A stretch of 64,000 bases of DNA from a virus: the IMG/VR virus record IMGVR_UViG_3300020462_000001, positions 1 through 64,000 of that record. One strand, 5' to 3'. Both the position numbers and the translations under genes were made by a program. A model generated the notes under the pieces. It was not told where the DNA came from. It did not search any database and was given only the letters and a program-made list of their open reading frames with translations. Below, piece after piece: positions 355 to 48,777 of this stretch. The stretch's first letter is position 1. Each line of letters begins with the position of its first letter.

Positions 355-460
355 TATTAGTGCAGGGAACACTAGGTAGTAGTATCTCCACTCTACCCTT
401 GCGAGTGGATATGAAAGACTGTTGTTTATACACGCTGTTTAGTCTTGGTAAGGCGTGTTA
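355..460 (-). ncRNA. Structured psbA 5' leader, PhotoRC-II-like RNA motif
   Basis: Stems at 430-458 (ACACGC/GCGTGT), 387-409 (TCCACTC/GAGTGGA) and 358-374; loop 441-446 can pair with 415-420 (pseudoknot). Position matches the known PhotoRC-II motif of cyanophage psbA. Confidence 0.7.
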
Positions 461-474
461 CGTTTCCGTTACAA

Positions 475-6825: not shown

Positions 6826-7632
6826 TTATTCTTTATCTGTTGAATTTGTTTGTGAGGGTTCGGATATCCTGCCAAGGTATGGATCATAATTCATCAACTC
6901 TTCTACCGGCATCTGTGCCCCTCTCTGAGACCAGAATGCCCACTGAGCATCATAGTTACCCTTATGGAAGGCATCAACGTGTTCAGGGTGAATACTACTA
7001 CCTAAGGGGATGTGATACAACAGGAGTGGTAAGGCATAAGTGTTACCTGAGTTGTATAGAAGATCATCTGCAACTGGTCTAGGTCTTACACCATTGTCCA
7101 GTTTATACTTATCCTTTCTTGTATGAAGATCGATCATCTTCTTTGCATGATGACGAGTGATCAAATAACAAGCAGTAGAGAATTCATTGACAAATCTCTT
7201 ATGAATCTTTATCTGAATGTCTCCAGTACAAATGATTGCAATCTGACATACATCCCAGTCATAAGGAATACGACAGAAGAAATCCTTCCAAGTAAAGTTC
7301 CAGAACTTAACCAACTCTAAACTACAATCATCTTCCATCATGATTGCATAAGGATCACCACTCTCATAGAATTGTTTGATGGCTTTGAGGTGAGAGGTCA
7401 CACAACCAATCTCACCACTACTTACCATGTCAGGGTATCTACCCTTCAGAATACCTCCTAGATCGTCATCACGACCATCATAGGCAGATACTCTTGTGTA
7501 GTTAGTGACACCCCAGTATTCAAACTGATCCTCCATATATTCACGTCTCTCTGGCTGACCATCCAGATTGATGTAGTAGATATGAGGAATTCCTTCTAGC
7601 TTATACTTTGACTTGTTCTTATCTCTGGTCAT
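6826..7632 (-). CDS. Glycosyltransferase family 25
   Basis: YINLD...ERR, RVSAYDG, GEIGCVTSHLKA, MEDD motifs. Confidence 0.9.
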   Translation of the reverse strand: MTRDKNKSKYKLEGIPHIYYINLDGQPERREYMEDQFEYWGVTNYTRVSAYDGRDDDLGGILKGRYPDMVSSGEIGCVTSHLKAIKQFYESGDPYAIMMEDDCSLELVKFWNFTWKDFFCRIPYDWDVCQIAIICTGDIQIKIHKRFVNEFSTACYLITRHHAKKMIDLHTRKDKYKLDNGVRPRPVADDLLYNSGNTYALPLLLYHIPLGSSIHPEHVDAFHKGNYDAQWAFWSQRGAQMPVEELMNYDPYLGRISEPSQTNSTDKE

Positions 7633-8512
7633 AAATCCAATCCATCACATCAATTTCGGGTTTCCATCCAATGACTTCACCAATCCTATCTATATTTGCA
7701 AGAGTGGTTGAGGCTTCACCAGGACGTTCAGGTAAGTATACCTGATTATCAGAGATAGCATTAGCAATCTCTTGAATAGAATAGTTCTTACCACTACCTA
7801 CATTGTATACATGGCCCAACATATGGTAGATAGGTGATATGGCCGCAAGATAGTTTGCTCTTGCTACATCTTGAACATGAACAAAGTCACGTCTCTGTGA
7901 ACCATCACCAATAATAGTAAGTGCGTCCCCACACTTTGCTTGTCTCTGAAAGATACCAATCACTGGTGCATATTGACCAACAGTAGGAGACCTATCACCA
8001 AACACATTGAAGTATCTAAGTGATACTGTCTCTAAACCATAGAGATCTGTATACATCTTACAAAGTTTCTCACCTGTAATCTTGGATACAGAGTAAGGGT
8101 TCAGACAATCATCAGGTTGTGTCTCTACATTAGGCCAAGGATTTCCACCATAACCAGATGATGTAGAGGAATATACAACCCTCTTCACACCAGCCTCTCT
8201 TGCACATTGTAGGACTACAGTAGTTCCAACACAGTTCATCTTGACTGCATGAATAGGATTCTCAATGGCAGGTTGTAGACGACTCTCTGCTGCAAGGTGA
8301 AACACATAATCCACACCATCAAACAGAGGTCTCATCTGTTTATACTTTGTGATGTCTGCCTTTGCATTCTGTGTCTTCTTATTCCAGTGAAACTTATTAT
8401 TGTTTGCACTTTCATTATCAACACAAATGACTTCGTATTTCTTATGAAGAAGGTAATCTACTAGGTTTGAACCGATGAAACCTGCAGCTCCTGTAACTAA
8501 TGCTTTAACCAT
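7619..8512 (-). CDS. NAD-dependent nucleotide-sugar epimerase/dehydratase
   Basis: TGAAGFIGS, YSVSK (YxxxK), LRYFNVFG, RDFVHV. Confidence 0.95.
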   Translation of the reverse strand: MVKALVTGAAGFIGSNLVDYLLHKKYEVICVDNESANNNKFHWNKKTQNAKADITKYKQMRPLFDGVDYVFHLAAESRLQPAIENPIHAVKMNCVGTTVVLQCAREAGVKRVVYSSTSSGYGGNPWPNVETQPDDCLNPYSVSKITGEKLCKMYTDLYGLETVSLRYFNVFGDRSPTVGQYAPVIGIFQRQAKCGDALTIIGDGSQRRDFVHVQDVARANYLAAISPIYHMLGHVYNVGSGKNYSIQEIANAISDNQVYLPERPGEASTTLANIDRIGEVIGWKPEIDVMDWIYDQR

Positions 8513-9236
8513 GGATAGATTGATAGATAAGATTTTTTAATCGTGTAGTAGAATACACATGTTCACTTCTGGGAATCCATACGATAGGAATACCCACCCC
8601 AACACCACTATAACTACCATCCGCATAGTCATCACCAAGAAACCTTAGATGGTATTCACCAGATTCAAGAAAGTTTAGAAACTCACTCTCAACATCATAA
8701 GTAACTACTTCATCAACATTCTTCAGTGACAATAGGATTTCTTTCCTGTCCTCTACTGATTGGACTGGTGCCAGCTTCCAACTCCTCTCGGAGTTAGGGT
8801 TGGTATGAAGGGCAACTGTTAGATGATTACAATGTTGTTTGGCAAAGGAAAACATCCTAGTGTAACCAGGATGAATAATATCAAAGGCACCAGCAACAAT
8901 ACCTTTCTTCTGTGGTTGTGTTTTCTTCCACTCCTCTACATTGATACCTTTGTCATCAATAAAGATATCAGCGTTTGGTTTGAGAAACATGGGCTCCAGT
9001 TGATGATACTTTACACCCCACTTTTTCAACTGTTCCTTTGTGAGATCTGACCAATCAATACCAGATGCCTTACCCCTTGCAGTAAAAATTGTGATGTGGT
9101 TACCCTCATCATATAATCTATTGACAGTCTCAACCATAAAGGGAAATGGTGTGGCCTCTAAGTAACCTGGCTTGTTATCATCAGGTCTCATTGGAGTGTG
9201 ACAAATAGTCCCATCCAAGTCAAAACAATATCTCAT
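8505..9236 (-). CDS. HAD phosphatase fused to TagD/RfaE-like nucleotidyltransferase
   Basis: FDLDGT...IFTAR...KP..DIFIDDK, then GAFDIIHPGY...GDDY...YSTT. Confidence 0.85.
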   Translation of the reverse strand: MRYCFDLDGTICHTPMRPDDNKPGYLEATPFPFMVETVNRLYDEGNHITIFTARGKASGIDWSDLTKEQLKKWGVKYHQLEPMFLKPNADIFIDDKGINVEEWKKTQPQKKGIVAGAFDIIHPGYTRMFSFAKQHCNHLTVALHTNPNSERSWKLAPVQSVEDRKEILLSLKNVDEVVTYDVESEFLNFLESGEYHLRFLGDDYADGSYSGVGVGIPIVWIPRSEHVYSTTRLKNLIYQSIHG

Positions 9237-9757
9237 ACCACTCCATGTAAGAATATCTGATGAACACACTCTACCACACCATAGGACTCTGAGTCAACAT
9301 GGTAATCAAACTTTGAGAAGTTTGCAAAGTTTGCATTTCTCCTCATAGTGTTGTGTGGACTGAACCCAGTTAGAATACCATGATCAATTCCATTGTAATT
9401 ACAATGTTTCTGACAGTTGATCATATTCAGTGACTCTCCACTAGAACTAATCAGAACTACCAGAGTATCTTCTTCTACATGGTACTTCAGGAACTCAACA
9501 TAAGCATTCTCATAACCATAATCATTTGTCAACATAGTCAACATAGAAGGATCAGACAATACATTCACCTTCTTCTGATGAAACTTCATATAATCTTGTG
9601 AGATATGAGATGCAACAGAGTTACTACCTCCATTCCCAAGAATGATAATACGATTATGTCTATCGAACTGATCTTGATACCTCTCAAACTCATCTTCGGC
9701 ATGAGCGTGTTCCAATGCTTCGACATAGGATTTAAAAGGATTCACCTTTAACTCCAT
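9233..9757 (-). CDS. gmhA: Phosphoheptose isomerase (SIS domain)
   Basis: GNGGS, NDYGY, ISSSGES, YGVVECVH. Confidence 0.8.
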   Translation of the reverse strand: MELKVNPFKSYVEALEHAHAEDEFERYQDQFDRHNRIIILGNGGSNSVASHISQDYMKFHQKKVNVLSDPSMLTMLTNDYGYENAYVEFLKYHVEEDTLVVLISSSGESLNMINCQKHCNYNGIDHGILTGFSPHNTMRRNANFANFSKFDYHVDSESYGVVECVHQIFLHGVV

Positions 9758-10682
9758 CAGATACCACCTTTATTTTAACATTTTCATATGGAATATTCAA
9801 TGTGTTTGTTTCAGAAAATACAAGAAAGAAACCACCATTACCTGCTCCACACAGTTTGTGAGCCACCACACTATCATTATTAGATAGAACCTTATCCATA
9901 TCTTGGATGTGTTCGTTCTCTGCAATAGAAGAACTTGTTTTCTTCTTCTGTTCCCATGACTTATTCAGTTCCTTAAGGATATGTTTGTAGTCCTTCTTCT
10001 TGAAGAACTCATATGCATGATCAACAATCTTCAGGAGGGGTTTGATTTTGTCGAGGTTTCCTGTGACACTCTTGAGTATCTTTTTAGAGTTCCTTGTAAC
10101 ACCAGTAAAGACAAGATGAGTATCATAGTGATCAAATAGATCAGTAGGTAGATACTCATACTTGATAGTGTTGATATCATAAAACTCAATTCTTTTAAAC
10201 CCTCCCACACCGCAACCATAGGGGTCTTGATAGCCACAATAAGGGTTGAACTTAAGTTCGAGAACATAGGCTAGAGAACAGATTTCCGTATCGGTTTTCT
10301 CAATACCTTGAAACAAACAACAAGCTTTGATAAGGCTAATGAGATATGAAGATGAAGATGCCAACCCACTTCCTTGTGAGTATGCATCACTAGTTAGGGT
10401 GACTTGAACAGGAGGCATATCAAAATACTCCAGAACAGTCCTTACAACTTCATTCTGGATATCATCAATACAATATACCTCTTCCCTCTTTGAGTAGTTG
10501 ATAATGTATTTGTGTTGATCCTTATTGAAACCAAACCTATCCTGACTGATAGTCACATAGGTCTTCAGGTCACATGCAAAACTAATTACAGATCCATAAC
10601 CATACTTATCAACAAAGAATGGGTTGTCAGTAGAACCACCGAAGAGTGAGATCCTCAATGGACAAGATGTGATGATCATCAA
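9732..10682 (-). CDS. hddA: D-glycero-alpha-D-manno-heptose-7-phosphate kinase (GHMP)
   Basis: PLRISLFGGSTD, GSGLASSS, GYQD, KLCGAGNGGF. Confidence 0.85.
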   Translation of the reverse strand: MMIITSCPLRISLFGGSTDNPFFVDKYGYGSVISFACDLKTYVTISQDRFGFNKDQHKYIINYSKREEVYCIDDIQNEVVRTVLEYFDMPPVQVTLTSDAYSQGSGLASSSSYLISLIKACCLFQGIEKTDTEICSLAYVLELKFNPYCGYQDPYGCGVGGFKRIEFYDINTIKYEYLPTDLFDHYDTHLVFTGVTRNSKKILKSVTGNLDKIKPLLKIVDHAYEFFKKKDYKHILKELNKSWEQKKKTSSSIAENEHIQDMDKVLSNNDSVVAHKLCGAGNGGFFLVFSETNTLNIPYENVKIKVVSDGVKGESF

Positions 10683-25378: not shown

Positions 25379-25451
25379 TGCTGGTTGTGGGGATCGAACC
25401 CACTTTCTTTCTGTTATGAGCAGAGTGCAATTACCAAAGTGCTAAACCAGC
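25379..25451 (-). tRNA. tRNA with CAT anticodon (elongator Met or Ile2)
   Basis: GCTGGTT acceptor stem, CTCATAA anticodon loop, GTGGG-TTCGATC-CCCAC T arm; G1-C72, so not initiator. Confidence 0.88.
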
Positions 25452-26582: not shown

Positions 26583-26656
26583 AGCCTCCGACCCGACTTG
26601 AACGGGTGACCTGCTGTTTACAAAACAGCTGCTCTATCCAACTGAGCTACAAAGGC
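26583..26656 (-). tRNA. tRNA-Thr(TGT)
   Basis: GCCTTTGTAGCTCAGTTGGATAGAGCAGCTGTTTTGTAAACAGCAGGTCACCCGTTCAAGTCGGGTCGGAGGCT cloverleaf. Confidence 0.95.
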
Positions 26657-26658
26657 AA

Positions 26659-26732
26659 CGGGTCAGGAGGGACTCGAACCCCCGACCAATTCATTAGAAG
26701 TGAATTGCTCTATCCATCTGAGCTACTGACCC
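26659..26732 (-). tRNA. tRNA-Arg(TCT)
   Basis: GGGTCAGTAGCTCAGATGGATAGAGCAATTCACTTCTAATGAATTGGTCGGGGGTTCGAGTCCCTCCTGACCCG cloverleaf. Confidence 0.95.
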
Positions 26733-34393: not shown

Positions 34394-34582
34394 TTAATCT
34401 TTGTTAGAGACCCACTTCTTCTTATTCTTGTCATAGGTCTTCACTTCACCTGGTCTCAGAGAGTCTTTTTGGTATTGAGCAAAACTCTTCTTACCATATC
34501 TCATTCTGTCATCTTGTTCTTTGTGTCTTCTTTTCTCATCTTCAAGTCTTTTTTCATACTTGGCATCGTAAGCTTCATACAT
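34394..34582 (-). CDS. Small basic hypothetical protein
   Basis: LRPGEVK...KWVSNK; TAATG overlap. Confidence 0.75.
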   Translation of the reverse strand: MYEAYDAKYEKRLEDEKRRHKEQDDRMRYGKKSFAQYQKDSLRPGEVKTYDKNKKKWVSNKD

Positions 34583-35355
34583 TAGTCTGACTCTCCTACT
34601 CTTGATTTGTATGGATTTGGTTTCTTGTGCATAGCAGAGATTTTAGCTCTAGCCTTTGCATGTTTTTCTTTCTCAGATGCCTTTTCGTCAGGTGTCATTG
34701 CCTTACGTTTCTTGAAGTATTCTTGAGATACTTTCATCTGATCCTCAACACTCGTTCCCTCTTTTTTGATAGAAGGAGCCATCACTTTCATATGAGAATC
34801 ATACTTCACATCAGTTTTCTTGGCTGGTTTGGCATCCTTAATAGAAGGTGCACCAGTCATATCAGCCTCATCGAGCTCATACATCTCAACCACAACCGCA
34901 CCAATCTCTTCAAAGGCTTCAGTTACACCTTGAGGAGGATTGATTCTGATTTTGTTCTTTATATTCTTCTCTTTAATCTTACCTTTTTGATCTTTCTTAT
35001 CCTCCGATGAATCATCTGGAGATGAATCGGTTTTCTCTTCCTTATCCTCAACATCAACAACTTCACGGAGATCCGTTCTCCAATTAGAGTAGTTCTCTTT
35101 TACTTTCTTCTTCTCTTTCTTCTTCTCTACTGGAGAACAAGGAACACCTTCAACCTCACAATGACCTTCGTTTACCTTCTTACTGGGGTTCTGTTTGTTG
35201 TATTGTTTGACAGCTCTCTTATGAATGTCATAACCAACATCACCCTTGGGCATTGAATCGGAACGTTCCTCTTCTTTCTTTTCCTTCTTCTTATCACAAC
35301 CTTCACCAATACTCTGGTTGTAGATTGCAGACAGCTCGTTAAGAGGGATACTCAT
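34582..35355 (-). CDS. Highly charged probable head-internal polyprotein
   Basis: Many hydrophobic/K-x-E|G/A/N sites; CATAAATA late promoter at 35381-35388. Confidence 0.7.
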   Translation of the reverse strand: MSIPLNELSAIYNQSIGEGCDKKKEKKEEERSDSMPKGDVGYDIHKRAVKQYNKQNPSKKVNEGHCEVEGVPCSPVEKKKEKKKVKENYSNWRTDLREVVDVEDKEEKTDSSPDDSSEDKKDQKGKIKEKNIKNKIRINPPQGVTEAFEEIGAVVVEMYELDEADMTGAPSIKDAKPAKKTDVKYDSHMKVMAPSIKKEGTSVEDQMKVSQEYFKKRKAMTPDEKASEKEKHAKARAKISAMHKKPNPYKSRVGESD

Positions 35356-35363
35356 TTCTCTAA

Positions 35364-36629
35364 CTACTTTTTCTTATTCTTATTTATGAAACTCTTAATA
35401 TCATAACCCTTATATGGCTTTGCACCATCTTGAAGGTTAGTAGGTTCACCCTTCTCAAAACCAGGAGTTAGTTTTGCAATTCTCTTGAAGTTACCAGAAG
35501 TTCCAACCAAAGTATTTGGATGAGACTTATCTCTCATCTCACTATCCATCTTAACTTCAGTATATTCTTTAAGATCTTTCACCCAAGACTTGAACATAAT
35601 ATTATCTTCTGTTACACAGATGAGGTAGTTAGTTCCTCTACGAACAATTTTACCTACTAATCCAGTGTTCAGGTTCTCAACTAAAGTATTCAAGTTGAAA
35701 ATCTTTTTAGTTACATAGTTCTCACGAAGATTTCTCCAGTCAAACTTAGGTGCAATCTCCCAGAGACTCCACGATTCTGTCGTAACTTTCATTGCCTTAC
35801 GAACAGTATTCATGATAGACTTCGCTGTCTTATCATCTACAGTGTCTGGAATACCAGTCCTAAACGTCTCAAAATCATTCTCTGATGCTGCCTTTCTCAT
35901 CTTAGATGCAGACATTCCTTCTACACCTTCACCTTCTGCATCTCTCTCACCAGCTGAAATGGTTTCAATGTTTCCAAAGTCATACAACTTACCATTGTAT
36001 TTCTGAGCCAAACTATCAAACTCAGATACTCTATCAGATCCAACTACGATCTGAACATCAGAATATCCTTCTGCATCTGCTGACTTGAGAGCATCAAATA
36101 CAGTAACAATCCCTTCATCATTGATGATATCATCAGCATGATCAGGGAACATCTGTTTCATCAAAGAAGTCTTTTGATTAGGATCAAGTGGATTCTTCTT
36201 AGGATCAAATGATCTGGAAGGATAGATTTTCAAATCACCCTTAGCAACAGACCTCGCTTGATCTAATAACTTCTGATGACCAACAGTTGGTGGATTGAAC
36301 CTACCAAATACTATTGTCAACGTCTCTCCACTTCTATCTCCACCCGATTCTTCTTCACCACTACCAGCTGGTGTCTCTTCTTCTGAGGATGATCTCTTAC
36401 TTGCACCCTCATCATCACTTTTAACTACTCTTTGTATACCACTTTCTTCCTGACCACCAGTTGACTTCCTATCAGTGAACACAAGTTCCCCACCTTGTGT
36501 TCTTGCTTTAACATTTCCACCACGATCTACCCAGTTACCACTACCATCAGAAGTAAGACCCAACTTTCTTGCTTTCTCTGATGCTCTTGTGACTCTCGCT
36601 TCTGATAAAAAATTAAAGAAGTCTTTCAT
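35364..36629 (-). CDS. HIGH-family nucleotidyltransferase (cyanophage 'cytidyltransferase') with CTS-like N-terminus
   Basis: MKDFFNFLSE|A; FGRFNPPTVGH, VVGSDR, SAGERD, MSASKMR; GATAAATA at 36652-36659. Confidence 0.88.
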   Translation of the reverse strand: MKDFFNFLSEARVTRASEKARKLGLTSDGSGNWVDRGGNVKARTQGGELVFTDRKSTGGQEESGIQRVVKSDDEGASKRSSSEEETPAGSGEEESGGDRSGETLTIVFGRFNPPTVGHQKLLDQARSVAKGDLKIYPSRSFDPKKNPLDPNQKTSLMKQMFPDHADDIINDEGIVTVFDALKSADAEGYSDVQIVVGSDRVSEFDSLAQKYNGKLYDFGNIETISAGERDAEGEGVEGMSASKMRKAASENDFETFRTGIPDTVDDKTAKSIMNTVRKAMKVTTESWSLWEIAPKFDWRNLRENYVTKKIFNLNTLVENLNTGLVGKIVRRGTNYLICVTEDNIMFKSWVKDLKEYTEVKMDSEMRDKSHPNTLVGTSGNFKRIAKLTPGFEKGEPTNLQDGAKPYKGYDIKSFINKNKKK

Positions 36630-36657
36630 TTGACAATATTATCCATAGAAGTATTTA

Positions 36658-37350
36658 TCAGACAAAATGTTTTCTGAGTTTACCCATAGATTTCTTCTCA
36701 ATAAGGTGAATCATAGCGTAACTTACACCAAAGATCTTACCACATTCTCGTTGTGATTTGGCATAGAAACCATCAAGACCATAACGATGACACATAACAC
36801 TATACTCACGTTCTGTGAGAACTTCTTTCATTTGATCCTTGACAATCTCTAACTCACAATCAAGTTCAGTGTAGTATTCATCAGATACCAAGTCCTCAAG
36901 AGTAGAGTTGTCACCAATTGACCTATTGAGAGACATCACAAAAGGAAGAGAGTTCTTGAGTTTAAGATGTTCTTCTGGATTACTCTTCTCCAACTTACGA
37001 AGCTTCTCTTTTACATGGGAAGGAATACGAACTTTACCATGATTATTGGTGTGAAACTTACTCACATAACAATAGATCCAATAGTAGGAATAGGTGGAGA
37101 ACCTACAACCTTCTTTCGGATCAAACTTACGAATTGCTTTCAGTAACCCAATCACACCCTCTTGGAACATATCCTCAAAAGAATATTGTTCATTCCTACA
37201 ATACATCTTCTTGGTAACTTTACTTACCAGACCAAGATTATGCGTAACCATCCTCTCCAAAGATCGATCACATCCTTGTTGTGCTTCCTTACACAGTTCA
37301 ATTTCTTCAACGTGGGAAAGTCGTTTGGTCTTCATTAAGGGGATCAACAT
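36658..37350 (-). CDS. sigma70-family RNA polymerase sigma factor (RpoD/RpoS-like regions 2-4)
   Basis: HNLGLV, DMFQEGVIGL, KFDPKEGCRFSTY, VRIPSH, SLN, LTERE...RYGL. Confidence 0.92.
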   Translation of the reverse strand: MLIPLMKTKRLSHVEEIELCKEAQQGCDRSLERMVTHNLGLVSKVTKKMYCRNEQYSFEDMFQEGVIGLLKAIRKFDPKEGCRFSTYSYYWIYCYVSKFHTNNHGKVRIPSHVKEKLRKLEKSNPEEHLKLKNSLPFVMSLNRSIGDNSTLEDLVSDEYYTELDCELEIVKDQMKEVLTEREYSVMCHRYGLDGFYAKSQRECGKIFGVSYAMIHLIEKKSMGKLRKHFV

Positions 37351-37365
37351 GTTTACTATACTAAT

Positions 37366-37394
37366 AGTATACCGCGGTTTTACCCCAATGTCAA
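37366..37394 (-). promoter_or_regulatory. Early sigma70 promoter TTGACA-17-TATACT for the sigma gene
   Basis: Near-consensus hexamers. Confidence 0.85.
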
Positions 37395-37396
37395 CG

Positions 37397-39370
37397 TCAG
37401 ATGGACAGATCTCTAAGTGACCTCTTCAACCTCTCAATCATAAACCTACCAGTTTCCAATGACTCAGAAAGAATCTTCTTGAATTCTTTATTTTTCAAGA
37501 ATCTGTCAGCAAATCCACCATTCTTTTTGATATGATCAATCAACGTTGACTTTGCTGCACCATCATTCTGTTGATCAAATGCAGCCTGACTACCCATCTC
37601 TCTTGCATCTCTCCAAACTTGAGAAAGTCTTGCTCTACCTGCCTCATCTTGATCCATCAATGTGGATACAAATGCAGAATAAACCTTGTCATCTAACTTT
37701 CCTTGATTACCTCTGCCAGATTTCTTCTTCATATAACCACCAAGATCAAGTTCTTTGATCATCTCATAACCAATTCTATTCTTGACCTTAGGAAGTGACA
37801 CTCCCTTAGTCTTACCAAACTTACCAATATTGCTGTTGATAGTCTTTGCAATCTTTCTATCATTCTCTGAATACAGATCAAACAATTCAGAAGTTGCACT
37901 CTCTGACAACTTACCATTTTCCATGAACAGAGAATTGACAAGTCTGGCCTTATCATTAACAGTATTAGATTCTTCAGTCAGAGCATCTCTCGTTTCATAA
38001 TCCTCATCAGTAAAGTCCTTAAGTTTATCAACTTCGGTCTTATACCACTCATCCATACCCTTATCGAGTTTGGTTTGATTGAGGTTCGATGCTGTCAAGA
38101 TAAAGTTATCAACATTCTCACGTTGATCTTTCATCTCCTGTGTTGGAGCTCCATCATCTTTATTGTTAAATCCTCTCACATGTTCCAGATCTGTAGCATT
38201 CAAGTCAAGATCTGCACCACTATAACCATCCTTACCACCTTGTTGTAAGAATAGTTTTGCAACCATCAAACCACGCAATCTTCCATTTGCAACACCATTT
38301 GTCTTACCAGTCAACTTGCCTCTCAGTTGATTGCCATCTTTATCAATACCTAATGAGTGTCCAGTGTAGCTGTCAGATATCTTACCTGCACCTTGAAAAT
38401 TGCTCCTCAGTTTTTGTGGAAGTGCATCAAAGAATATCTCAGCTTCTTCATCAGTTACTTCAATAGCTCTAGTGGACTCTACAAACTCTTTAATTGTTTC
38501 AGGACTACCATCACCATATCCTTCTTGTAGTCTTTTTCTATTTGATTCTAGAAGTTCATAATCAACTTTACCTAATGCATTTTTACCTGCACCAGAATTA
38601 ATTCTACCAGTATAACCATAAGCTAAGGACAGGGCATTAACAAAGGACTTCTTTTTATCAGGATCTTCAATCTTACCGATAGCTTCTTTAATATCGTTAA
38701 TCCTTTTTTCCTGTTGCTTCGTCACTTCGCCAAGCTTTTCTTTATATTCACTTGTTACTTTTTCTACTTCATCATCTAGATCAAGGTCAGCATCTTCTTT
38801 TTCTTTTTCAGCAACTTTATCCTCAATTGTAGGGAAGTCTTCTGGTTTCTTTTCTGGTGCCTCTTCAGTTGCCTGAGGTTCTTCAGTAGGTTCCTCTTCT
38901 GCAGGAGGCTCTTCTTCAACAGCAGCAGCCGCGGCAGCCTGTTGATTTGCCATAGCAACCAGTGTGTTAGCTGCTCTCTTTACTTCCTTCTGTCTTTCTG
39001 GTGTTACCTTTCTACCACCAGTAAATTCTTTTGCCTTTTTCTCGGCATACTCTTGATCACTTATACCATCAGGAATCTGAGGAAGTGCAGTAGGTGTTGC
39101 CTGTGCACCAGAAGCATCTTGACTAAACTGGTCTAATGACTTTTTCTCAGCTTCTGTTTCTGCTTGTCCTGCAGGGGAGTTTGCCATTCTGTCTGGGAGA
39201 TCATAAGGCTCCAGTCTATCACCTACATTCTTATATCTCTTCTGAGTTTTGGGATCGATATAAACACCACGAGCCTGGTGTGAATAACCAAGCTCTGATG
39301 CCTTTTCGGCTCCTTTACTTTCTTGGAGAGATCTTACATGTTTGAAATACTTAAATACATCTCTCGTCAT
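37397..39370 (-). CDS. Large probable head-internal protein with Cas9-type HNH nuclease domain
   Basis: LFLQQGGKDGYSGADLDLNATDLEHV...NVDNFILTASNLNQTK; N-terminal module shared with 35364-36629. Confidence 0.75.
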   Translation of the reverse strand: MTRDVFKYFKHVRSLQESKGAEKASELGYSHQARGVYIDPKTQKRYKNVGDRLEPYDLPDRMANSPAGQAETEAEKKSLDQFSQDASGAQATPTALPQIPDGISDQEYAEKKAKEFTGGRKVTPERQKEVKRAANTLVAMANQQAAAAAAVEEEPPAEEEPTEEPQATEEAPEKKPEDFPTIEDKVAEKEKEDADLDLDDEVEKVTSEYKEKLGEVTKQQEKRINDIKEAIGKIEDPDKKKSFVNALSLAYGYTGRINSGAGKNALGKVDYELLESNRKRLQEGYGDGSPETIKEFVESTRAIEVTDEEAEIFFDALPQKLRSNFQGAGKISDSYTGHSLGIDKDGNQLRGKLTGKTNGVANGRLRGLMVAKLFLQQGGKDGYSGADLDLNATDLEHVRGFNNKDDGAPTQEMKDQRENVDNFILTASNLNQTKLDKGMDEWYKTEVDKLKDFTDEDYETRDALTEESNTVNDKARLVNSLFMENGKLSESATSELFDLYSENDRKIAKTINSNIGKFGKTKGVSLPKVKNRIGYEMIKELDLGGYMKKKSGRGNQGKLDDKVYSAFVSTLMDQDEAGRARLSQVWRDAREMGSQAAFDQQNDGAAKSTLIDHIKKNGGFADRFLKNKEFKKILSESLETGRFMIERLKRSLRDLSI

Positions 39371-39373
39371 TGA

Positions 39374-40459
39374 TCAACCTTCCCAGGAATTAACAATCTC
39401 TTCGATACGAGCCAGTTCAGCTTCAGAGAATTCTACACCCTCTTTCTTCATCTTCTTGCCAAATCTCATGGCTTGTTGACGTTGATACTGCTTTTCAATC
39501 TTTTTCTCGTCACGTCCATACTTCTTGGACTTGCCTTGTTCGATTGATTCTTTGTCAGCAGCACGGCCGATCTGTCTATCGATCTTGGTTTGCTTTTCTT
39601 TATTGATAGGAATGAAACCTTCAGTCTCAATTTCCTCTTTCTTCATGTTCTTGGCAATGGCCTTACGTCTCTTGGCGAGAAACTCATCAGAAGAATCCTT
39701 ATCACCATCATTATCGATGTCTCCATCTTCCTTACCTACGGGATCAAGTTTCTTCTCATAGATGGCTGCGTATGCATCACCCCAACCCTGTCTCAGAGAA
39801 GAATCACCTTCCTCCATAGAACCACGAGTTCTCTCAGCCTTATCATGATCGAAGTTCTTATCCTTCATAGGATCATAAGTCTTTGACTTACCACCAGCAT
39901 ACTTCTTCTTCATTCTATCAGCGTAAGCCTGAGGTGCTTCACCAGGCTTTCTAGCTTCAATGAGATCAGAGATCATCTCAATCAAACCACGTTTGATATT
40001 CTCTCTATCTTCATGAATCAAAGCTGCGTGAAGTTTCTGATTACCAACTTCATGAGAAACTCTGTTGTTCCACTTCTCAGTCAGAGGCTTATTCTGACGA
40101 TACTTAAGGAACTCTTCCTCACAGTTTCTTTCAGCCTTATCGGTTACGGTACCAATTACAGTTTCAAATGCTTCTACAATCTGAGTGATCTTACTATCTC
40201 TCAACGAAGAAGAGACACCTTTAGATTCTTCTAAAACAGATTTAACAACACTACAAGCCTCTTCAAGATCAAGACCATACTGGAAAAGACCTTCTACAAT
40301 TTCTTCACAAACTTCAACCAAATCAGACTCAAGCATTTGGCCCAAGTTCATCCCACTGATTTGATCTCTGGCTTGTGTAAGTTCTTCGCTAATAGTATCA
40401 TCATGTACAGCAGAGTATGCCTTATACAGATCTCTCATATCTTGCATGGTTTCGGCCAA
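39374..40459 (-). CDS. Probable head-internal polyprotein with DxDxDG loop
   Basis: KKLDPVGKEDGDIDNDGDKDSSDEFL; repeated x-x-E|G/A/K sites; TATAAATA at 40478-40485. Confidence 0.72.
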   Translation of the reverse strand: MAETMQDMRDLYKAYSAVHDDTISEELTQARDQISGMNLGQMLESDLVEVCEEIVEGLFQYGLDLEEACSVVKSVLEESKGVSSSLRDSKITQIVEAFETVIGTVTDKAERNCEEEFLKYRQNKPLTEKWNNRVSHEVGNQKLHAALIHEDRENIKRGLIEMISDLIEARKPGEAPQAYADRMKKKYAGGKSKTYDPMKDKNFDHDKAERTRGSMEEGDSSLRQGWGDAYAAIYEKKLDPVGKEDGDIDNDGDKDSSDEFLAKRRKAIAKNMKKEEIETEGFIPINKEKQTKIDRQIGRAADKESIEQGKSKKYGRDEKKIEKQYQRQQAMRFGKKMKKEGVEFSEAELARIEEIVNSWEG

Positions 40460-40472
40460 ATAAAATCTATTA

Positions 40473-40679
40473 TTAGTTATTTATATCTTCTAGGATTTCC
40501 TTTTCATTTTGATAAGGAACTTCCTTTCCACTATAAATGTCCCATCCTTTTTTAAGTTCTGGAACTAACCATACATCCCATTCTTTCATGCACTGCTGTC
40601 TGTTGAAATCATTACTATTACACATACCCAACACTAAGATGAACATATTAATTATTTTAAGGATAATCGATATGTCCAT
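40473..40679 (-). CDS. Hypothetical protein
   Basis: Hydrophobic N-terminus, C...C..W..WL.PE..PY..E. Confidence 0.7.
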   Translation of the reverse strand: MDISIILKIINMFILVLGMCNSNDFNRQQCMKEWDVWLVPELKKGWDIYSGKEVPYQNEKEILEDINN

Positions 40680-44545: not shown

Positions 44546-44683
44546 CTAATCAGTTATTTTTAATTTTTCCCAATAGGGAGTTTGACCTTTTGATGCTTTC
44601 ATCATAGCAATATAAGTCATTACCTCTTCTATAGAAGAAAGTATTATGGGGGGTTTAATTGGTGAGTGCCAGAGTTTGTACAT
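44546..44683 (-). CDS. Small hypothetical protein (45 aa)
   Basis: MYKLWHSPIKPPIILSSIEEVMTYIAMMKASKGQTPYWEKLKITD*; TAATG overlap. Confidence 0.6.
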   Translation of the reverse strand: MYKLWHSPIKPPIILSSIEEVMTYIAMMKASKGQTPYWEKLKITD

Positions 44684-45843
44684 TATCCGAAGAATAGTTC
44701 TAAATTTGCAACCTTTTCAACATTCCACCCAATAGAATCCAATACGACTTTTAAAGGTTCAAGGAAAGCCTTGTTAAATTGTAACTCATAATCAATATAC
44801 TTGTGAAGACCAGTCTCATATGGAAAATCTGAAATAAAACTAATCACATTCTCACGAATAGGATTAGCCTTCTTCAAATACACAAACTTGATCTTATCTC
44901 CATTCTGGATGGTAGTATACTTATTATCCAGTCCTTTCTCTTTCATATAATAATTATAAAGCAAAGCTCCTCTCACATGGATTGGACACCCTTTGCCATA
45001 TATTGTTGAATGGTTCTTATGTTTATTTACATCAGAAATAGAACGGGGAAATGAGAGCTCTTCTGGAGAAAGGTTATTGAATTTAGTTCTAGCATTATCA
45101 ATAAACCTAATCATCTCATCTTCTGTTCCCTTCATCATCAACTTAAGGGCATCCTTAATCATAGTTCTACAAGGTGCAGGTGTTGATGACTTAACAGCTT
45201 CAATACCCATGATCTTGAGTTTGGGTTCCTCATAACGAACACCCTCACTATCCCACACATTGAGGATGTATCTCTTCTTTGCTGTCCAGATTCCACGGTC
45301 AGCGATATTCTCTCGCTTCATCTGCATCTTCTGATCATATGCGTTTACATAATCAGCCAGTTCCACATAACACTTATCGATGAAGGGTTCTAGTTGATCC
45401 TGACACACTTTATCAAGTAGATTTACAACCTTCTCTTTATCATCCTTCTGTTTAGATAAAAACTTATCTACCAAAGGTCCGAGGTTTAGATATACAGAAT
45501 CAGTATCAACAGCAATCACATAATCTTTATCTGTTTTGAGGAGATCATTCAGATACTTATTGAGTTTATTCTCAATCCATCGAATAGAGGTTTGACCAGA
45601 TAGTGTAATAGCTTCTGCATTTGCCAACTTATAGTATCGAAACCATTGATTACCAATGGCACCATAAGCTGAGTTCAAACAAATCTTTCTCACCATCTGG
45701 AAGTTGTTAAACTTGGCAATATCTTTTACAGTTTGGTCTCTAAGTTTTAAGAGTTGACTATCACTGAGTTTAGAATAGTCTTTATCAGATTGTATAATCT
45801 CCTCTTCTGGTCCCTCTCCAGCACCACCAATCAGATAACCCAT
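44683..45843 (-). CDS. g43: DNA polymerase gp43, C-terminal subunit (fingers, palm, thumb)
   Basis: RKICLNSAYG (motif B), DTDS (motif C), KKRY, clamp peptide LELFFG. Confidence 0.95.
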   Translation of the reverse strand: MGYLIGGAGEGPEEEIIQSDKDYSKLSDSQLLKLRDQTVKDIAKFNNFQMVRKICLNSAYGAIGNQWFRYYKLANAEAITLSGQTSIRWIENKLNKYLNDLLKTDKDYVIAVDTDSVYLNLGPLVDKFLSKQKDDKEKVVNLLDKVCQDQLEPFIDKCYVELADYVNAYDQKMQMKRENIADRGIWTAKKRYILNVWDSEGVRYEEPKLKIMGIEAVKSSTPAPCRTMIKDALKLMMKGTEDEMIRFIDNARTKFNNLSPEELSFPRSISDVNKHKNHSTIYGKGCPIHVRGALLYNYYMKEKGLDNKYTTIQNGDKIKFVYLKKANPIRENVISFISDFPYETGLHKYIDYELQFNKAFLEPLKVVLDSIGWNVEKVANLELFFG

Positions 45844-45989
45844 TACTTACAAACCTCTTTTGAGTAGTTTACACCAATTCTATTTCCATAGTAGATAAAA
45901 CAGTCAGTGTCCACACTGTCCTCCACCTTACTTGAACACCCAGCCATTAAAAGAATAACCAATACTATGTAACCTTTCCAATAACCCAT
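45843..45989 (-). CDS. Small lipoprotein (48 aa)
   Basis: MGYWKGYIVLVILLMAGCSSKVEDSVDTDCFIYYGNRIGVNYSKEVCK*; lipobox MAGC. Confidence 0.6.
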   Translation of the reverse strand: MGYWKGYIVLVILLMAGCSSKVEDSVDTDCFIYYGNRIGVNYSKEVCK

Positions 45990-46894
45990 GACCTCATACC
46001 ATGTGGTACATCTGAAATAATTTCTTGAGTCAATATAGCTGCATCTTTTGGAACAACCACACAGAATCCAATACCTAGATTGAATACATTACGCATCTCT
46101 TCCTCAGCAATGTCTCCTGCTTCTTGAATCTTATTGAAGAGTTCTGGTCTCAACCAAGAGTCATAATCTACATCAACTGTCAAACCCTTAGGAAGACACC
46201 TAGGAAGGTTCTCAGGGATACCACCACCTGTGATGTGAGACATACCTAAGATAGGAACCACATCTAACAAGTCCTTAACAAGAGGAGCATAGATTGTAGT
46301 TGGTACTAACAACTCTGGCATCTCTTTATAGTAAATGTAATTTCTCCACAACATATCATTGACCAGTGTATATCCATTACTATGAAGACCACTACTCTCA
46401 ATACCAATGACTAAATCACCTGCTCTGATACTTCTACCATCAACAATATCAAACTTCTCTACAATACCAGTACAGAAACCAGCAAGGTCATAGTCAGTTG
46501 CTCTAAAATGTTCAGCAGTCTCACCACCTAGGAGTTGCATATCTGCAATCCTACAACCCTCAGCAACTCCATGGATAATATCACTTACATTAGCATCAAG
46601 TGTTTTAGTAGAGATATAGTCTAGAAAATATAATGGTTTAGCGCCAGAACATATAACATCATTGACGCACATAGCAACAAGATCTTGACCGATAGTGGTG
46701 TAATCATTAGCAATCCTACAGATATTGATCTTAGTTCCAACACCATCAGCACCAGACACTAGTACAGGTCTTTCATATCCTGACGGTACTTCCATCATTC
46801 CATTAAACCCACCAACACTAGGTGATAATGTTTTGATATACTCTACAAAGGATCGTCCCTTCTGAATGTCAACACCAGATGTCTTATAGTCCAT
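45965..46894 (-). CDS. purM: Phosphoribosylaminoimidazole synthetase
   Basis: MDYKTSGVD, DGVGTK, DLVAMCVND, GGETAEH, SSGLHSNG, HITGGG. Confidence 0.96.
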   Translation of the reverse strand: MDYKTSGVDIQKGRSFVEYIKTLSPSVGGFNGMMEVPSGYERPVLVSGADGVGTKINICRIANDYTTIGQDLVAMCVNDVICSGAKPLYFLDYISTKTLDANVSDIIHGVAEGCRIADMQLLGGETAEHFRATDYDLAGFCTGIVEKFDIVDGRSIRAGDLVIGIESSGLHSNGYTLVNDMLWRNYIYYKEMPELLVPTTIYAPLVKDLLDVVPILGMSHITGGGIPENLPRCLPKGLTVDVDYDSWLRPELFNKIQEAGDIAEEEMRNVFNLGIGFCVVVPKDAAILTQEIISDVPHGMRSWVIGKVT

Positions 46895-47147
46895 TTTTAA
46901 TCTTCTCCAATTGTTCTAGTTTCCATATGATATAGTCAATCGTTGGAATACACTGAGGATTCCATCCAACAAACCCATATGTTTGTTCACTAGGCATCTT
47001 CCAACATTCAGCATCATCATTCTCAAGATCTAATGACTTACGATACTCTTCCTCACCAAACATAACAACTGCTCGTTCTGCTTGGTTCAAACTCTTGAAA
47101 CAATCAAAAGAATTTCTTCTAATGATTTCAGGGATTTTGTGTTTCAT
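46884..47147 (-). CDS. Hypothetical protein
   Basis: FKSLNQAERAVV...FVGWNPQCIPT. Confidence 0.75.
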   Translation of the reverse strand: MKHKIPEIIRRNSFDCFKSLNQAERAVVMFGEEEYRKSLDLENDDAECWKMPSEQTYGFVGWNPQCIPTIDYIIWKLEQLEKIKNGL

Positions 47148-47320
47148 TTTCCAAATAGTATACTACAAACTACATACAATCCCATTGCAGACCAGTATCC
47201 TAAGGTTGTCAATCCAAAAATACCTGGTATTACAGCATTCCATACTAACATAACAATTAGAGGACTTACAAATAATTTTATCAGTATTTTACATAATGAT
47301 TCTTTTTGTTTAGGGTTCAT
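47144..47320 (-). CDS. Small two-TM membrane protein (58 aa)
   Basis: MNPKQKESLCKILIKLFVSPLIVMLVWNAVIPGIFGLTTLGYWSAMGLYVVCSILFGK*; ATGA overlaps at both ends. Confidence 0.75.
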   Translation of the reverse strand: MNPKQKESLCKILIKLFVSPLIVMLVWNAVIPGIFGLTTLGYWSAMGLYVVCSILFGK

Positions 47321-48777
47321 AGTCCTCTCCTCTTCATCTCACCTTCAATATCAACTAACTTTTGTTTACTCTTCAACATCTCACCTTTGAATGCCTTACG
47401 TTCTGCATACATCTTCTCCATCAATTCAGGAAGGAAACCTTTAACATCCTTACGGAACATAGCTCCGTTAGCACATACTGCATAATCATTATACATCTCA
47501 AAGGTGAGTTTCTCATTAAGAATCTTATCGACAGTAACTGATGGATGTTTCTCTTCCAAAAGAGTTTCAGGTGAGATGTTGTATTGCATCATCAGGTGAG
47601 GATACAGAGAGTTAAGGTCAAAAGATACAACCCAATCATATACACCAGGAACAGGTTCTTTAACATAAGCTCCAGCAAACTTCTCATCCTTAGCAGATGT
47701 TTGTTTCTGAGGAATTACAATATTCCTCTTCTTCAGATAGTTATAGATGATCGTATCCCACAACTTTACTTGACCCATAGGATCAACAAAGTTCACTTTG
47801 GCATCAAATGCCATAGTAATAACCAGTTCAATCAAACGGAGTTTGTCCTCCATCCTATCAACAAGTTCCACGTCAACGATGTTGTAATCTACAAACTTCT
47901 TCCAGTTACCATCATAGAACTCTTTGAAGGTATTGAACTCTGAGTGGTCCAACTTCTTCTGTCCAAGTTCTACCTCAGCAATAAAGTCCAGTTTATAGCT
48001 CTCCCTATTCACATAAGTAAATTTCTTATAAAGTTCCAGAAAATCCAAAACAGTCACACCAGCCATGGTATAAACATTGTTTGGACGACCATGAATAAAC
48101 ACCTCATCATGAGACACAATGCCCCAAGGAGAGAACCTCCTCACATTTCTGTCTCCCATGATACGAGACACACGGCCAAGAAGATAAGGGATATCATAGA
48201 AACGACAGTTCCACCCTGTCACAACCTCAGGAGGATCTGTAGACCACCAATGGATGAATGCATTCAACATATCAATCTCATCTTCATAATGATGATATGT
48301 CACATTCTTTTGAGTAGGTGTATATGGTTTCCTACCCCAAGTAATGATGTTTTTGGTTGTGTAATCTTGAATGGAGATGGTCAACATCTCCTCGGCACAA
48401 GAATCAGGTGAAGGGAATCCATCTTCTGACTTCACCTCAATATCAATAGTGACCAGTTTGATCTTCTTAATATCCCATTTGATTTCATTTTGGGGATACT
48501 TTTCAGAGATATATTGGTAGAGATACTTCTCATTACCATAGATCTTGAAACCATCTACACCTTCGTACTTCTTATAGAACTCTCTACAATCTCTTACATT
48601 TCCAGGTTGAATAGGTTCAACATTCTCACCTTCGAGTGTTTTCCACTCACTTTCTTTCTTGGATTTCACATACAGAGTAGGGAAAAACTCTTCCTTATAC
48701 TGAACACGTCGTCCATTCTCATAACCACGAACCAGGAACTCATTCCTGACCATTTGAATGTTGGTGTAAAAATCCAA
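47317..48777 (-). CDS. g43: DNA polymerase gp43, N-terminal subunit (exonuclease plus motif A)
   Basis: DIEV (ExoI), NCRFYD (ExoII), YNIVD (ExoIII), SFDLNSLYP (motif A); ends in fingers. Confidence 0.95.
   Translation of the reverse strand: MDFYTNIQMVRNEFLVRGYENGRRVQYKEEFFPTLYVKSKKESEWKTLEGENVEPIQPGNVRDCREFYKKYEGVDGFKIYGNEKYLYQYISEKYPQNEIKWDIKKIKLVTIDIEVKSEDGFPSPDSCAEEMLTISIQDYTTKNIITWGRKPYTPTQKNVTYHHYEDEIDMLNAFIHWWSTDPPEVVTGWNCRFYDIPYLLGRVSRIMGDRNVRRFSPWGIVSHDEVFIHGRPNNVYTMAGVTVLDFLELYKKFTYVNRESYKLDFIAEVELGQKKLDHSEFNTFKEFYDGNWKKFVDYNIVDVELVDRMEDKLRLIELVITMAFDAKVNFVDPMGQVKLWDTIIYNYLKKRNIVIPQKQTSAKDEKFAGAYVKEPVPGVYDWVVSFDLNSLYPHLMMQYNISPETLLEEKHPSVTVDKILNEKLTFEMYNDYAVCANGAMFRKDVKGFLPELMEKMYAERKAFKGEMLKSKQKLVDIEGEMKRRGL

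Follow-up and report, generated by a model that had tools for sequence, protein, structure and literature searches.

Only a small number of enzymes are known to travel ready-made inside the heads of tailed phages. In T4, diverse internal proteins are packaged under the direction of a capsid-targeting sequence (CTS): the gp21 protease cleaves after L/I-X-E, 10 N-terminal residues of IPIII are enough for targeting to the capsid (PMC9026906), and viable phage can package staphylococcal nuclease or EcoRI when these are fused to a CTS (PMC3012670, PMC9026906). In cyanophages, kinases and cytidyltransferase/NMNAT proteins have repeatedly been reported as non-structural enzymes of the virion proteome (PMC10665884, PMC9602691). 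The gp12 protein of cyanophage S-CREM2, which mass spectrometry of virions detected by 28 peptides (27% coverage), was labeled a "CRISPR-Cas9 nuclease" by its authors, annotated as "CRISPR-associated endonuclease Cas9/Csn1 (virion protein)", and interpreted as a Cas9 nuclease that was taken over from the host (Front Microbiol 2023, PMC10665884). Here, a relative of gp12 is described, a 657-residue HNH protein assigned to phrog_3561 ("unknown function"), which is encoded at 37397-39370 (-) of a 64,000-nucleotide (nt) stretch of viral DNA (IMG/VR record IMGVR_UViG_3300020462_000001, positions 1 to 64,000; hereafter, the window). The window is taken from a 90.5-kb virus fragment that is estimated to be 44% complete (hereafter, the contig). 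On balance, the evidence tips toward a metal-dependent, Cys-less DNase of the HNH_4/Cas9-like type, which works outside any CRISPR or RNA-guided system and is packaged in the capsid and injected.

The catalytic signature of the 657-residue protein lies at 38060-38265 (-), and forms the core of an HNH (beta-beta-alpha-Me) nuclease domain, residues 335-440 (38051-38368, -), that was delineated by conservation, structure prediction, Foldseek, VIA-align, and profile searches. Residues ~369-437 read LFLQQGGKDGYSGADLDLNATDLEHV...NVDNFILTASNLNQTK, exactly as quoted in an earlier note on this DNA, and each of the features listed there was found, including the Q377-x-G-K-D-x-Y383 lead-in, the E396-H397 pair, the N422-x8-N431 spacing, and the absence of cysteine; the His codon that it had pointed to (38180-38182) encodes H397. 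The E396-H397 codons (38180-38185, -) are predicted to supply an acidic metal ligand and the general-base His, the N422 codon (38105-38107, -) specifies the first Asn of the H-N-N triad, immediately before the second strand, and the N431 codon (38078-38080, -) specifies a helix Asn that is a putative metal ligand. A word index gave 241 relatives, and a search of 1.84 billion proteins gave 97 representatives at 50% identity. In an alignment of 61 relatives, reaching down to ~17% identity, H397, N422, and N431 were the sole invariant columns; the triad was retained in all eight homologues from isolate phages, and in 22 closer relatives no part of the protein was better conserved than the HNH motif region. 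The extended acidic and helical stretches of the protein, and its presumed co-transcription with a highly charged protein, would also suit a capsid-internal protein with a catalytically dead HNH fold that only binds DNA, for example, in genome condensation or ejection. However, restriction of invariance to the general-base His and both Asn residues, in relatives as divergent as these, is typical of a maintained active site, and renders a dead HNH fold improbable.

Searches of Pfam and of Protein Data Bank (PDB) sequences with the single protein gave no HNH match, and the HNH link came only from family-level profiles and from structure. When the profile of the 61 relatives was compared with all PDB sequences, 17 Cas9 sequences were matched at E 5e-4 to 1e-2, no other family scored better than E 0.029, and IscB was not matched. 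The profile alignment to Cas9 spans the lead-in helix (L-Y-x-x-Q-x-G-[KR]-[DC]-x-Y-[ST]-G), the D/E-H pair, the first Asn, and N-Q-x-K, and pairs H397 with the D-H of Nme Cas9. The Pfam family PF13395 (HNH_4; gathering threshold, 22 bits) was matched by 9 of the 61 relatives, with a best E of 9.2e-6 and one relative at 21.9 bits; the assignment to HNH_4 is thus transitive, since it passes through relatives that match PF13395 to a protein that does not. A search of the ESM Atlas returned only the protein's own cluster and low-score HNH clusters. The absence of any Cys residue (a count of 0 in 657 residues) rules out the zinc-finger type of HNH. The family is without a Pfam model, and its members carry misleading public labels that include "cytitidyltransferase", "CRISPR-associated endonuclease Cas9/Csn1", and "virion structural protein"; the family analysis corrects the labels "CRISPR-Cas9 nuclease" and "cytitidyltransferase".

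AlphaFold2, run with a 66-sequence alignment, gave a predicted local distance difference test score (pLDDT) of 85 over residues 225-657 and of 77 over residues 330-484. Searches of the PDB with the whole 433-residue model were uninformative in Foldseek (E >= 2) and yielded mainly generic helical hairpins, at residues 228-319, in VIA-align, and the HNH domain was therefore folded alone. An AlphaFold model of the domain, which was among the checks proposed in the earlier note, gave the beta-beta-alpha-metal topology, in which T-D-L-E-H (393-397) forms the first strand, F-I-L-T-A (423-427), directly after N422, forms the second, and S-N-L-N-Q-T-K (428-434) forms the helix that carries N431. Each of the best 21 Foldseek matches of the domain model was a Cas9 chain, and the isolated HNH domains of Sp, Geo, and Nme came first (E 0.04-0.15, with probabilities as high as 0.98 and identities as high as 29%); the Gme HNH nickase and PtuB ranked just under the Cas9 chains. 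VIA-align, which is independent of Foldseek, gave Z >= 2 for only 62 of 48,161 chains, and these were mostly HNH nucleases or their beta-beta-alpha-Me relatives: PtuB (5.7), SaCas9 (5.2), AnaCas9 (5.2), Gme HNH (5.1), AceCas9 (5.0), GeoCas9 (4.9), T4 endonuclease VII (4.7), and IscB chains (3.0-3.9), with McrA and Cap5 also matched. The fold is regarded as settled because the match lists are nearly pure, even though the single scores are modest. Residues 335-440 almost certainly adopt the HNH fold, and the protein is likely to be an active nuclease.

The closest structural match, PtuB of the Septu and retron Ec83 systems (9e8z_E, 8ee7_C; Z 5.7, root-mean-square deviation 3.1 over 75 residues), resembles the domain described here in being a Cys-less HNH employed outside CRISPR. 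It differs in being a small defense nuclease controlled by the PtuA ATPase, whereas no PtuA-like partner is present at this locus, and PtuB was not matched by the sequence profile. The resemblance to the HNH domains of Nme, Geo, and Sp Cas9 (5vgb, 8f43, 6o56) and to PF13395 comprises the zinc-free beta-beta-alpha-Me core, the acidic-His pair, the N-x8-N spacing, the Lys after the second Asn, and the lead-in helix, L-x-L-x-x-Q-x-G-[KR]-[DC]-x-Y-[ST]-G. In contrast to Cas9, the 657-residue protein has no RuvC domain around the HNH and no guide RNA, and its acidic residue is Glu rather than Asp. The spacer between the His and the first Asn is 25 residues long, with conserved residues of its own (F401, N403, D405, G407, and R417), compared with 14 residues in SpCas9.

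Among sequences of solved structure, Cas9 HNH domains are the nearest to the protein, which could point to an RNA-guided nuclease related to Cas9 or IscB. However, no RuvC, bridge-helix, REC, PI, or Cas9 Pfam family was detected at E <= 1 in the 657-residue protein; Cas9 chains aligned with it solely over their own HNH region, and its flanking helical domains had no Cas9 match. No CRISPR-like repeat array was found in the 30-46 kb interval of the window, and Rfam searches of the entire window revealed no guide RNA family, the only matches being three tRNAs and a PhotoRC-II RNA. Intergenic gaps are 3-50 nt, a tight packing that leaves no room for a guide gene. An RNA-guided nuclease is, on these grounds, exceedingly improbable, and the earlier description of a stand-alone, Cys-less HNH of the Cas9/HNH_4 type, which lacks RuvC motifs, an array, and a guide, is borne out by the Pfam, Rfam, repeat, and fold searches. 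The suggestion that the domain is a relative of the Cas9/IscB HNH holds as far as membership of the same HNH_4-like subgroup; special kinship beyond the subgroup is inseparable from the heavy enrichment of the PDB in Cas9, which, together with the Z scores of only 3.0-3.9 for IscB, leaves a specific Cas9/IscB kinship indistinguishable here from a general HNH_4-type domain.

S-CREM2 gp12 (WNL50931.1) matched the family profile at E 2.8e-19 and the 657-residue protein in pairwise comparison at E 1e-4 over the HNH region, and shares with it the N-terminal module described below, the H-N-N triad, and the placement of an ATAAATA motif; it differs in its length (869 residues), its sequence (only ~19-25% identity), and its C-terminal part. 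Both proteins are devoid of Cas9 parts besides the HNH domain. The similarity to the Cas9 HNH and the presence of one family member in virions were already published in 2023 (PMC10665884). New here are the family-wide invariant triad, the conserved late-promoter placement, the connection of three virion-listed proteins to one family, and the common N-terminal address that links the HNH protein to two other enzyme classes.

The two virion-listed members other than gp12 are S-TIM5 AEZ65730 ("virion structural protein and packaging"), which matched the family profile at E 1.3e-27, and S-CBWM1 gp174 ("virion structural protein"), which matched at E 3.4e-53 and is encoded immediately 5' of the major capsid gene. 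All three retain the H-N-N triad, and structure matches in BFVD agree with their membership of the family. Packing of the HNH protein in the head and its delivery with the DNA are probable, because these distant relatives are listed as virion proteins in three other cyanophages, and the protein itself is probably virion-associated. The earlier note had proposed an "injected nuclease"; the virion-listed family members and the N-terminus, which resembles a capsid-targeting sequence, indirectly favor this proposal, in which the activity, packaging, injection, and target of this particular protein are inferred.

The extreme N-terminus of the protein, residues 1-17 (39320-39370, -), is a putative propeptide that ends in L-Q-E and looks like the T4 capsid-targeting propeptide with its gp21 protease site. 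An [LI]-x-E motif within the first 30 residues was found in 109 of 116 full-length relatives, compared with 29 of 114 control open reading frames (ORFs; 25%), and ended at residue 16-17 in 90 of the 109 relatives that carry it. A gene for a gp21-like protease is present in the same contig. The propeptide is followed by a 40-residue module, residues 18-57 (39200-39319, -), with the pattern A-x-x-K-A-x-x-L-G...G-x-G-x-W-x-D. When the contig was searched with a hidden Markov model (HMM) of residues 1-57, the sole other match was the neighboring NMNAT-like cytidyltransferase (421 residues; 35364-36629, -), at E 3e-17, which carries the same propeptide and module. Pairwise BLAST of the N-terminal modules within the contig was weak (E 0.02-0.12), so that the HMM was needed to link them. 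The module HMM also matched S-CREM2 gp12, S-CREM2 gp14 (a virion APH-like kinase, with two copies), and the g130 Ser/Thr kinase and g128 of S-CRM01, as well as the pair of HNH protein and cytidyltransferase in ACG-2014f, S-B05, and ~30 IMG/VR loci. Absence of cysteine is a further family trait: 136 of 172 relatives are Cys-free, compared with an average of 1.2% Cys in the other long ORFs of the contig, and the Cys-free ORFs of the contig include the prohead scaffold and protease.

The arrangement of the module varies among phages. In S-CREM2 gp14 (7580-9847), the module occurs twice, at residues ~9-56 and 169-208, and this doubling makes it separable from the extreme N-terminal propeptide; the module may have a function of its own. 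S-CRM01 carries the module on a separate 183-residue ORF, g128 (100701-101252), directly 5' of the 285-residue "T4-like" g127 (99847-100704), and the virion cytidylyltransferase of S-CREM2 (ORF154) is only 286 residues long. Address and cargo may, therefore, be split over two genes in these "cluster C" phages.

The earlier note called the HNH protein late, and the position of promoter motifs, here and in relatives, places its gene in a late-promoter unit. A T4-type late-promoter motif, TATAAATA (40478-40485, -), lies 19 nt 5' of an ORF for a highly charged, 361-residue protein (39374-40459, -), whose stop codon is 3 nt from the start codon of the HNH gene and which is presumed to be co-transcribed with it; GGAAGG stands directly 5' of the ATG of the HNH gene. 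A counterpart of the 361-residue ORF is found 5' of the HNH gene in S-B05 and at many IMG/VR loci. The contig has 28 copies of the ATAAATA core on its coding strand and a single copy on the opposite strand, and ~22 of the 28 coding-strand copies are 12-44 nt 5' of a start codon. Two tail-fiber genes, the tail sheath gene, and the head scaffold gene, which served as positive controls, are preceded by the motif, and the cytidyltransferase gene (motif at 36652-36658) and the 257-residue ORF downstream of it have copies of their own. Counts of TATAAATA and ATAAATA were not above the shuffled expectation, and the evidence for late promoters is their strand exclusivity and position rather than their number. 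The placement is conserved: at 45 of 58 assessable IMG/VR loci, no more than 60 nt separate ATAAATA from the start of either the HNH gene or the upstream gene or genes that abut it. The motif is also found 15 nt 5' of g51 in S-CRM01, 41 nt 5' of the abutting upstream gene in S-B05, and 22 nt 5' of the small gene gp13, which abuts gp12, in S-CREM2. Late expression of the HNH gene is, on this motif evidence, well supported.

In the proposed mechanism, the HNH gene and the abutting upstream gene would be transcribed late from their common T4-type promoter, and the N-terminus of the HNH protein, comprising the L-x-E propeptide and the 40-residue module, would direct it into the prohead core in the manner of a T4 capsid-targeting sequence. 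The propeptide would probably be trimmed by the gp21-like protease, and the mature, Cys-free enzyme would stay in the head with the DNA and enter the cell on infection. There, H397 would act as the general base that activates water, with E396 and N431 as metal ligands, and the DNA that is cleaved would most likely be the host chromosome, or competing or defense-related DNA. Action on host or foreign DNA after injection is plausible, at somewhat less than an even chance. The resemblance to the T4 internal proteins (IPI-III and Alt) is drawn by inference and without a claim of sequence homology; it comprises a late gene, a short N-terminal L/I-x-E peptide, diverse cargo that follows a common address, and a gp21-type protease (PMC9026906, PMC3012670). 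The cyanophage protein differs in its additional 40-residue module and in its cargo, a nuclease rather than an anti-restriction protein or ADP-ribosyltransferase.

Several observations weigh against a packaged and injected nuclease. The virion records all come from distant homologues (17-25% identity); the authors of the S-CREM2 study, moreover, warn that late proteins, when abundant, may be carried along in the purification of virions (PMC10665884). The module HMM did not match the S-TIM5 and S-CBWM1 homologues or g51 of S-CRM01. The HNH gene is surrounded by genes of replication and nucleotide metabolism (gp41, UvsX, gp43, gp61, and NrdAB), outside the structural block. The fold scores do not exceed Z 5.7 in VIA-align or fall below E 0.04 in Foldseek, and the protein itself lies below PF13395 HNH_4, with no match at E <= 1 and none in a six-frame search of the contig. 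Finally, some form of restraint is needed for a nuclease that is kept alongside the phage DNA, and no candidate for it was found. Shielding of the phage DNA from its own nuclease by a phage methylase was considered, and is not supported: no DNA methyltransferase (PF02086, PF00145, or PF01555) was found in the 90.5-kb, 44%-complete contig. Methyltransferase genes do lie near the homologue in four isolates (ACG-2014f, S-TIM5, S-CREM2, and S-B05).

The replication neighborhood and the co-purification caveat would both be accounted for if the protein were a nuclease that works inside the cell in the late phase and has no dedicated route into the virion. It would then act on intermediates of replication or recombination, on host DNA, or on substrates of packaging, and its detection in virions of other phages would be carry-over. 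T4 endonuclease VII, a late debranching enzyme, has the same fold (Z 4.7). Nevertheless, carry-over would have to explain the record of a family member as a virion protein in three independent phage lineages, the propeptide and module that are common to other virion-detected enzymes, and an absence of Cys like that of prohead core proteins; in addition, S-CREM2 encodes a separate endonuclease VII, gp4. An unpackaged late nuclease is accordingly considered unlikely, although it is the most serious of the alternatives to packaging and injection of the HNH protein.

The distribution of the N-terminal address suggests, tentatively, a wider scheme, in which several cyanophage lineages load capsid enzymes by means of a modular "address tag". 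The tag would consist of the L-x-E propeptide and the 40-residue A-K-A-L-G...G-x-G-x-W-x-D module, and its cargoes would include the HNH DNase, an NMNAT-like nucleotidyltransferase, and Ser/Thr kinases; the HNH would be drawn from a phage-resident pool of HNH_4 domains, and the DNase would cut host or rival DNA at genome entry, before phage expression. The presence of one address on three unrelated enzymes amounts to a testable sequence rule for predicting ejected proteins, and the address might also be exploited to bring foreign cargo into cyanophage capsids. If packaged, the nuclease might help to shut off the host, scavenge nucleotides, exclude co-infecting phages, or act in counter-defense, and a naturally packaged DNase, if true, would recast the first minutes of cyanophage infection in the globally important picocyanobacteria.

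Many annotated phage HNH genes are homing endonucleases, and a small one of this kind occurs near the S-TIM5 homologue. A free-standing, selfish HNH gene is nonetheless very improbable at this locus. The protein is 657 residues long, and has conserved flanking domains; the gene is in stable synteny with the cytidyltransferase gene in ~30 loci, and the block of charged protein, HNH protein, and cytidyltransferase is stable across isolates as well; and a late promoter, virion-listed homologues, and the absence of sporadic insertion beside a target gene are all at odds with a mobile element.

The flanks of about 200 residues, which the earlier note had treated as unknown and as a possible means of target recognition, are resolved into four parts: the N-terminal module described above, an acidic linker that is disordered, and a pair of helical domains that are conserved with the HNH core. 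The linker, residues 58-225 (38696-39199, -), is of low complexity, rich in Ala, Glu, and Pro, and poorly alignable between relatives. It is followed by a helical domain, residues 226-330 (38381-38695, -), with invariant columns from A250 to G288 and a conserved loop, G-R-x-N-x-G-A-G-K-N-x-L-G, for which the AlphaFold2 pLDDT is below 50 (85 for the model overall). The all-helical C-terminal domain, residues 441-657 (37400-38050, -), is conserved with the HNH core and has no informative fold match. In close relatives, conservation of the invariant part of the loop, G-R-x-N-x-G-A-G-K-N (residues 253-265; 38576-38614, -), equals that of the active site. The loop had no match to any known motif and is not of the Walker A type; it could be a second functional site.

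The contig is assigned, by gene content, to a T4-like cyanophage, because the neighbors of the HNH gene include genes for gp41 helicase, UvsX, a split gp43 polymerase, primase, NrdA/B, MazG, tail fibers, sheath, scaffold, and prohead protease. Among isolates, Synechococcus phage ACG-2014f encodes the closest homologue of the HNH protein, at 47% identity. The block of HNH, sigma, and cytidyltransferase genes is bordered by low-complexity, highly charged proteins, namely, the 361-residue protein and the 257-residue protein (34582-35355, -). Each of the two genes is located 3' of an ATAAATA motif, and PHROG pieces are shared between the two proteins as well as with "cytidyltransferase" PHROGs; both may be additional internal proteins of the head. 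A near-consensus sigma-70 promoter, TTGACA-N17-TATACT (37366-37394, -), begins 3 nt past the stop codon of the HNH gene, directly 5' of the gene for a 230-residue sigma-70-family protein (36658-37350), and resembles an early-type promoter embedded among late units. The sigma gene is absent from the corresponding position of S-B05. Elsewhere in the window, the gp43 DNA polymerase is split into two ORFs of 486 and 386 residues (44683-48777, -), with purM (45965-46894) between them, and the Rfam matches correspond to the PhotoRC-II cis-regulatory RNA at 374-471 (-) and to three tRNA genes at 25379-25451 and 26583-26732 (-).

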